A DNA stretch of 353 nucleotides from the NCBI RefSeq assembly GCF_003334255.1, contig NZ_QOWU01000255.1, one strand, 5' to 3'. This DNA is from Escherichia coli. GTDB lineage: Bacteria; Pseudomonadota; Gammaproteobacteria; Enterobacterales; Enterobacteriaceae. This document shows, piece by piece, positions 1 to 353 of the stretch. The stretch's first letter is position 1. Each line of letters opens with the position of its first letter. Made by a program: the position numbers and the translations under genes. Under the pieces are notes generated by a model. The model was not told the DNA's origin. It was given only the letters and a program-made list of their open reading frames with translations, and did not search any database.

Positions 1-12
1 GTCGCGGTTTTC

Positions 13-153
13 CTACTGCTTACACTGTAAGAACGCCGCAAACTCCGCTCCCCACAAATTCAGCCGGAACTCACACAGCGAACCGTGTAACATCCAGATG
101 GTGAAGATTACCGTCATGCAAATTGTGACGGTGATAAGCGATTTTTGCGACAT
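13..153 (-). CDS. Hok/Gef-family type I toxin (small host-killing membrane peptide, HokA-like), 46 aa
   Basis: Minus-strand ORF from ATG (plus 153-151) to TAG (plus 15-13), translating to MSQKSLITVTICMTVIFTIWMLHGSLCEFRLNLWGAEFAAFLQCKQ. It has the Hok/Gef hallmarks: a short polar N-terminus, one hydrophobic transmembrane stretch (LITVTICMTVIFTIWML), the conserved SLCE motif, and an E-x-AAF C-terminal motif with a Cys near the end. From memory it aligns best with E. coli HokA (...FTWMIRDSLCELHIKQESYELAAFLACKLKE); I cannot assign a specific paralog, so no symbol is given. AGGAGG sits 8 nt upstream of the ATG. Confidence 0.9.
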   Translation of the reverse strand: MSQKSLITVTICMTVIFTIWMLHGSLCEFRLNLWGAEFAAFLQCKQ

Positions 154-158
154 AGCGC

Positions 159-187
159 TTGCCTCCTGAGTGGAGAGGCGCTAACCT
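159..187 (+). promoter_or_regulatory. Candidate promoter for the Sok-like antisense RNA (-35 TTGCCT, -10 TAACCT)
   Basis: Plus strand has TTGCCT at 159-164, a 17-nt spacer, and TAACCT at 182-187, which would start transcription near 194. The -10 matches consensus only at the conserved T1, A2 and T6 positions. It is the best-placed candidate upstream of the 213-250 hairpin, but weak. Confidence 0.25.
162..167 (-). promoter_or_regulatory. Shine-Dalgarno sequence (AGGAGG) of the hok-family toxin gene
   Basis: Plus-strand CCTCCT at 162-167 is AGGAGG on the minus strand, followed by 8 nt (CAAGCGCT) and then the ATG at 153-151. This is a perfect core SD with a canonical spacer. Confidence 0.8.
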
Positions 188-193
188 TCTACT

Positions 194-253
194 TGTCAAG
201 GAAAGAAGTGTCAGGGCCTCGGGTTAACGTTAAAGTTGACTCGGGGCCTTTCC
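194..253 (+). ncRNA. Candidate Sok-like antisense RNA (type I antitoxin), about 60 nt
   Basis: Plus-strand transcript antisense to the toxin leader: a ~19-nt 5' tail (194-212), then a 16-bp hairpin (213-228 paired with 235-250, loop GTTAAA), then TTTCC. The helix has 12 Watson-Crick and 4 G:U pairs on the plus-strand RNA; on the minus strand those 4 positions are C-A mismatches. Size and shape (single-stranded tail plus one terminal hairpin) match the roughly 64-nt Sok RNA of plasmid R1. The 5' end is inferred from a weak promoter and the U-tract is short, so both ends are uncertain. Confidence 0.4.
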
Positions 254-307
254 ACATCAGGCCTTCAGGTTCACCTTCCAGCCATCAGCCGAAAGGCACC
301 CGCGCAT

Positions 308-336
308 AATCTACGATTTTTGCCCTGCACGGGCAA
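308..336 (-). promoter_or_regulatory. Candidate sigma70 promoter for the hok-type mRNA (-35 TTGCCC, -10 TAGATT)
   Basis: On the minus strand, -35 TTGCCC (plus 336-331) and -10 TAGATT (plus 313-308) are separated by 17 nt, with a T6 run just upstream. The predicted start at about plus 300-301 gives a leader of ~150 nt, similar to hok of R1. The downstream RNA would begin GGGUGCCUUUCGGCUGAUGG, which resembles the R1 hok mRNA 5' end as I recall it (GGCGCUUGAGGCUUUCUGCCUCAUGACGUGAAGGUGG). Hexamer matches are only moderate. Confidence 0.35.
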
Positions 337-353
337 CAAAAAACCCGCCATCA

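Follow-up and report, generated by a model that had tools for sequence, protein, structure and literature searches.

The right edge of a hok toxin locus in Stx prophages of Escherichia coli: a predicted intrinsic terminator of lom adjoining the hok promoter

What is the symmetrical sequence at the right edge of a 353-nt stretch of Escherichia coli DNA (hereafter the window, meaning the whole stretch analysed), where on the plus strand (314-353, ...cgaTTTTTGCCCTGCACGGGCAACAAAAAACCCGCCATCA) a run of T, an inverted repeat and a run of A follow one another shortly before the sequence breaks off? A sequence-only reading of the window had placed T5 at 317-321, TTGCCC at 320-325, TGCAC at 326-330, GGGCAA at 331-336 and A6 at 338-343, with coordinates and sequences that are all exact, and had treated the whole as one element, possibly the truncated terminator of a neighbouring gene. 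Part of the answer lies beyond position 353, in the genomes that carry the window.

The window has an exact match (100% identity) in 8 E. coli chromosomes, and relatives were found in 1553 of 5426 complete genomes. In the identical genomes the site belongs to a 933W/Sp5-like Stx prophage and lies directly downstream of lom; all of the annotated neighbouring genes are on the minus strand, and the hok/sok-type locus of the window has been left without annotation in these prophages. The gene order is tail-tip fibre, two hypothetical genes, Ail/Lom, hok, several hypothetical genes and a very large LPD38-domain protein. The lom-hok junction is common to about 200 phage records, the majority of which are Stx-converting, among them the EDL933 Stx phage and VT2-Sakai (Sp5). 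The reference record of VT2-Sakai (NC_000902.1) has 430 nt without annotation between lom and orf66, and this gap (44469-44897, corresponding to L166 1063-1491) encodes an identical 46-aa Hok protein and the same junction. In wastewater strains an IS1 is inserted upstream of lom, between it and the preceding hypothetical gene (L003 5233-5930), and the lom-hok junction is unaltered. Window positions are used throughout and correspond to the coordinates of the L001 locus minus 4000.

The minus strand of the window opens with TGATGGCGGG-TTTTTT (in the longer stretch, TGATGGCGGGTTTTTT), which had been interpreted as the 3' arm and the U-tract of an intrinsic terminator; arm and U-tract are indeed there, but the leading TGA(T) is loop and not stem. 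Beyond position 353 the minus strand (L001) reads ...ctgaaattcTGA gtaatacccgacaacatgtcat AACCCGCU GUGAU GGCGGGUU UUUUGUUG..., and the extension completes a full hairpin. Its 5' arm, AACCCGCU, occupies 362..355, outside the window, as seen in the extended sequences L001-L003; the loop, GUGAU (354..350), is cut by the window edge, with 353..350 inside and 354 outside; the 3' arm, GGCGGGUU, lies at 349..342, inside the window, and is followed by the U-tract (338..343, T6 on the minus strand and A6 on the plus strand) and then GUUG. A complementary arm had been expected past position 353 and is present 2-9 nt beyond the edge (355-362), although its sequence is not the anticipated CCCGCCA but AACCCGCU, which makes one G·U pair. 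The stem consists of 8 bp (7 Watson-Crick pairs, 5 of them G-C, and 1 G·U) closed by a 5-nt loop, the first two U of the U-tract pair with the AA of the 5' arm, and the tail that follows (343..334, minus strand) is UUUUUUGUUG. In ViennaRNA the hairpin has a folding energy of -12.2 kcal/mol (z -3.35), matched by 1 of 200 shuffles, and a terminator scan of the extended sequence reports a match at 4362..4342 on the minus strand only. A promoter/terminator scan of the window alone had found nothing, the terminator being cut by the edge and the promoter discussed below reaching only 8/12 consensus.

The upstream minus-strand gene that a truncated terminator called for is the co-directional Ail/Lom gene, whose product matches the Rck/OmpX (Ail/Lom) family profiles and whose stop codon, at 385-387, is separated from the hairpin by a 22-nt linker. 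Taken together, these observations indicate that positions 338-353, with 354-362 outside the window, are very probably (we would put it at roughly 0.88) the Rho-independent terminator of lom, with the hok promoter immediately downstream. This terminator is without annotation in the records examined.

The conservation of the junction was evaluated in 50 copies (27 haplotypes) of the lom context, drawn from E. coli genomes and IMG/VR contigs, by counting the variable alignment columns of each segment. The terminator stem-loop varies in 1 of 21 columns and the rest of the U-tract in 0 of 4, the U-tract as a whole being invariant in 27/27 haplotypes, while the linker between the stop codon and the terminator varies in 13 of 22 (59%) and the 3' coding region of lom in 39 of 113. 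On the other side of the terminator, variable columns number 1/6 in the -35 hexamer, 1/6 in the GGGCAA arm and 1/5 in the loop of the 320-336 palindrome, 2/6 in the rest of the spacer, 1/6 in the -10 hexamer, 34/148 in the hok leader and 54/141 in the hok coding sequence. Terminator and tail together (1/25) are thus less variable than the linker (Fisher p = 5e-5), the lom 3' coding region (p = 0.001) and the hok leader (p = 0.03). Searches with patterns that leave free either the terminator or the 320-336 hairpin yielded no compensatory pairs; the terminator stem is invariant, and part of this conservation could come from shared ancestry. A terminator of different sequence at the same site was also sought among diverged lom 3' ends: the full-length matches all belong to the same junction family, and the weakest ones cover the lom coding sequence only.

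The same signal is found once outside this setting. In a scan for the 24-mer ACCCGCTGTGATGGCGGGTTTTTT, an identical terminator appeared in one contig (L165, IMGVR_UViG_3300047994_000027) at 6800-6823, after an unrelated ORF of 153 aa and ahead of a helicase-like one of 442 aa, and the homology of this contig to the window ends right after TTTTTTGTT, past the T-tract. This shows the terminator to be self-contained and able to occur apart from hok, and its reuse suggests, from these sequences, that the lom-type terminator is passed from one phage genome to another as a short unit. Just upstream of the terminator, L165 has a partial direct repeat, CGCTGTGATG.

What follows the terminator is a predicted promoter. 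Past the U-tract the minus strand continues G TTGCCC gtgcagggcaaaaatcg TAGATT atgcgc GGGTGCC..., that is, a -35 hexamer TTGCCC (336..331), a 17-nt spacer with an A-tract (317..321, the T5 of the plus strand), a -10 hexamer TAGATT (313..308) and 6 nt to position 301, with one base only between the U-tract and the -35. These signals match the consensus in 8/12 positions, under the 9/12 threshold of the scan tool, and would make a promoter of moderate sigma-70 type. Their use is supported by a comparison anchored on the conserved hok 5' end, in which 157 copies supplied 44 distinct upstream sequences, located after lom, after ogr/Delta in P2-like prophages and in a few other contexts, several of them unrelated. 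The -10 is TAGATT, TAGAAT or TAAATT, at a fixed position, in 42 of the 44; a TTGnnn -35 stands 17 or 18 nt from it in nearly all; and an A-run of at least 5 is present in the spacer of 38. The -35 of the toxin promoter had been proposed to overlap the edge hairpin, and it does so, TTGCCC being also the 5' arm of the minus-strand 320-336 hairpin, at a position that is kept across hok contexts. The T-tract of the terminator was considered as an UP-like element for this promoter, an idea that finds no support, the other contexts having no A/T-rich sequence upstream at the corresponding place. Conservation among the hok contexts sets in at 301, which is also where the Rfam alignment starts and where the tac/fbi pairing described below ends; from these three limits we infer that hok transcription starts at about 301.

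The transcript predicted to start there resembles a hok mRNA in several respects. The ORF at 13..153 (minus strand) encodes a hydrophobic protein of 46 aa, a putative toxin named Hok/Gef family protein in RefSeq (WP_000078907.1), which scores under the cut-off of both NCBIfam models, HokA (38.4 bits, cut-off 89) and Hok family (22.7 bits, cut-off 73). Rfam RF01794 aligns over its full length to 301..142 of the minus strand with 41 bits and E = 4.6e-8, a score that does not reach the gathering score of 59; 317-353 is outside this alignment. The model is named 'sok antitoxin', and its match (142-301) is on the strand of hok, between the 5' end of the mRNA and the start codon of the toxin, and not on the antisense strand, which would encode Sok. 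At the 5' end, the tac-like sequence GGGUGCCUUUCGGCUG lies at 286..301 (minus strand), and GGGUGCCuuuCGGCUG is complementary to CAGCCGAuauGGCACCC downstream of hok, the pairing with this fbi-like element ending at 301. In R1 hok/sok, the exact 5' end of the mRNA pairs with a 3' element, and this 5'-3' (tac/fbi) fold-back is typical of hok mRNAs. The fbi-like CAGCCGAuauGGCACCC is past the left edge of the window, at about -53 to -37 (L001 3947-3963, minus strand), and overlaps the annotated ATG (L001 3956) of the next gene, a 133-aa hypothetical protein without NCBIfam match; the 3' region of the hok mRNA and the start of the downstream gene therefore share sequence.

Other elements of the locus were noted along the way. 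A mok-like ORF (199..71, minus strand) overlaps the start of hok. A probable Sok antisense RNA, recognised by eye, covers about 160-252 on the plus strand, with TTGCCT (160-165) as a -35-like and TAACCT (183-188) as a -10-like hexamer; it would finish near 252 with TTTCC, after an imperfect hairpin, GGCCTCGGGTTAAC...GTTGACTCGGGGCC. A further hairpin, TGACGGGGAC-TTTC-GTCCCCGTCG, is cut by the left edge of the window (1-14; L001 3981-4004) and has CGGTTTTCCT after it; placed just past the hok stop and antisense to hok, it has a terminator-like score on the plus strand; a copy from a P2-like prophage (L007 943..918) retains it with a different stem top and loop (GGGGAAG-TTGC-CTTCCCC).

The same hok family is widespread outside the lom context. 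Most of the approximately 1150 E. coli copies at 80-90% identity directly follow an ogr/Delta zinc-finger gene at the ends of P2-like prophages (L007-L010), which are inserted at different chromosomal sites. The BLAST homology of these copies to the window stops at 321, inside the 320-336 hairpin, and their promoter is TTGCCG-gagtaacaaaaaagcga-TAGATT, with a -35 that starts 10 nt past the ogr stop; this context has neither the terminator nor the hairpin arm. Insulation by a terminator is therefore not required by this hok family. Within Sp5 itself, the hok of the window is, by its sequence, a different paralogue from that of the experimentally studied hokW-sokW (Takada et al., 2021; PMC8621323), whose Hok sequence, as given by primer YO-357, is MKQQKAM.... 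That study discusses neither lom nor a terminator, and recent preprints on Hok diversity and on Pas/prophage sRNAs do not mention the lom-hok junction element.

With the terminator and the promoter in place, it can be asked whether the inverted repeat at the window edge is anything more than parts of these. In TTGCCC-N5-GGGCAA (320..336), the -35 hexamer makes one arm, and the first 11 nt of the spacer supply the loop and the other arm. No other perfect hairpin in the window reaches a 6-bp stem with a loop between 3 and 8 nt, but one or more of this kind turn up in 35.6% of 2000 dinucleotide-preserving shuffles (mean 0.53), and the folding energy is modestly lower than in shuffles, by about 2 sd (plus strand, -8.9 kcal/mol, z -2.2; minus strand, -11.3 kcal/mol, z -1.95). 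Taken alone, this hairpin is not above chance. The GGGCAA arm is found in the lom context only and is absent from the P2-type and from all the other contexts that share the promoter and the hok 5' end; the lom-context variants TTGTCC and GGGTAA are single changes in the stem, neither of them compensated; and the variability of loop and 3' arm (2/11) is no different from that of the hok leader (p = 1.0). Because of these three observations, we conclude that the palindrome is most probably incidental, a product of the -35 hexamer and of the spacer sequence next to it. As a second, tandem terminator it was discarded, as no U-tract follows the hairpin on either strand. A function for it, as the operator of a dimeric regulator over the hok -35 or as an RNA hairpin (with a stem extended by the U and A runs) in a lom-hok read-through transcript, has some points in its favour: the perfect 6-5-6 repeat overlaps the -35, the hairpin is part of the MFE structure of the 89-nt junction RNA, the two main haplotypes of the junction differ in the loop but not in the stem, and both substitutions would preserve G·U pairs in the minus-strand RNA. 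However, two transitions would both keep G·U with a chance of about 0.25, the -35 hexamer already constrains one half of the palindrome, and the 36% of shuffles with a similar hairpin, the missing arm in contexts with the same promoter and the leader-like variability all weigh against such a role, which we regard as quite unlikely. The T-run, hairpin and A-run, earlier taken as one unit, are two adjacent ordinary elements: the U-tract of the terminator, and a promoter with its conserved spacer A-tract.

Alternatives to the terminator reading itself concern its direction and its reality. The edge hairpin could be a bidirectional terminator that also stops plus-strand transcription (Sok-sense, antisense to hok) before it reaches lom, since the stem folds equally well on that strand (-11.0 kcal/mol, z -4.3) and the A6 tract precedes it there, as in many bidirectional terminators. 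On the plus strand, however, the stem is followed by UUAUGACAUGUUG (tail UUAUGACAUG), with no U-tract, the scan reports a terminator here for the minus strand alone, and the probable Sok RNA has its own hairpin and UUUCC ending near 252, about 90 nt earlier; a bidirectional function thus appears highly improbable. Similarly, the resemblance to a terminator could be coincidental, so that no termination takes place and lom and hok are co-transcribed. It is true that pattern matches alone are weak, the loose terminator pattern occurring 5 times in 1.8 kb against 1.8 expected. Nevertheless, a chance match would have to combine a stable GC-rich stem and U6 tail, the canonical position 22 nt past a stop codon, the strong conservation beside a hypervariable linker and the reuse of the same 24-mer after an unrelated gene (L165), and we give this explanation very little credence.

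If the hairpin is a terminator of lom, RNA polymerase leaving lom would transcribe the GC-rich 8-bp hairpin and its U-rich tail and release the transcript, and one base later the sigma-70-type promoter would start the hok mRNA at about 301. In the lysogen the terminator would keep lom transcription out of hok, and the hok mRNA would thereby begin at its own 5' end, which is needed for the 5'-3' fold-back pairing. Such insulation of hok is plausible: shielding the hok promoter from read-through would be a reasonable benefit because hok mRNAs rely on the pairing of an exact 5' end with a 3' element. Nonetheless, the terminator is most sensibly assigned to lom itself, in the style of a moron, with the insulation of hok as a by-product, and the back-to-back arrangement with the hok promoter is routine punctuation made of ordinary signals, with nothing new in kind.

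A more elaborate role can be imagined, in which the terminator is a conditional insulator. It would shield hok in the lysogen, and after induction Q-antiterminated late transcription, whose direction is that of every gene in this block, would read through it across hok/sok, collide with the convergent Sok promoter and generate 5'-extended hok RNAs, tipping the balance toward Hok and helping lysis; the read-through RNA might gain further structure from the palindrome of -35 and spacer and from the U and A runs beside it. We consider this scenario unlikely. If true, a type I toxin would be coupled to phage induction by way of transcription interference, in parallel to the unexplained RecA-dependent loss of sokW RNA that has been reported for the other hok locus of Sp5, hokW-sokW (PMC8621323).

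The importance of the preferred reading, termination of lom followed by an independent hok promoter, is small, and it settles the anatomy of the right edge as, in all likelihood, the end of the lom transcription unit and then the hok promoter. It also has a practical side, as Sp5 carries a second hok locus besides the published hokW-sokW, and work on type I toxins of Stx phages should count two hok loci per phage.

Compared with known systems, the predicted lom terminator resembles the intrinsic terminators of E. coli and its phages in the 8-bp GC-rich stem, the 5-nt loop and the U6 directly after the stem, as well as in its position shortly past a stop codon and its direction on one strand, and shows no notable difference from them except that it is one base from the -35 of the next promoter. 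The arrangement is likewise that of the lysogenic-conversion genes (morons) of the lambda lom/bor type, where an Ail/Lom family gene ends the tail gene block and is followed by its own terminator, although the phage is here a short-tailed Sepvirinae Stx phage rather than lambda. Finally, the locus shares with hok/sok-type loci the tac/fbi complementarity and a conserved promoter immediately ahead of the 5' end, which is conserved as well. It resembles them in a small hydrophobic ORF, classed by RefSeq in the Hok/Gef family, and in a leader that aligns with the Rfam model of the hok/sok region at a score below gathering, and it differs from the known ones in its location after lom in the late region of an Stx phage and in a 46-aa protein that remains under the NCBIfam HokA and Hok cut-offs.
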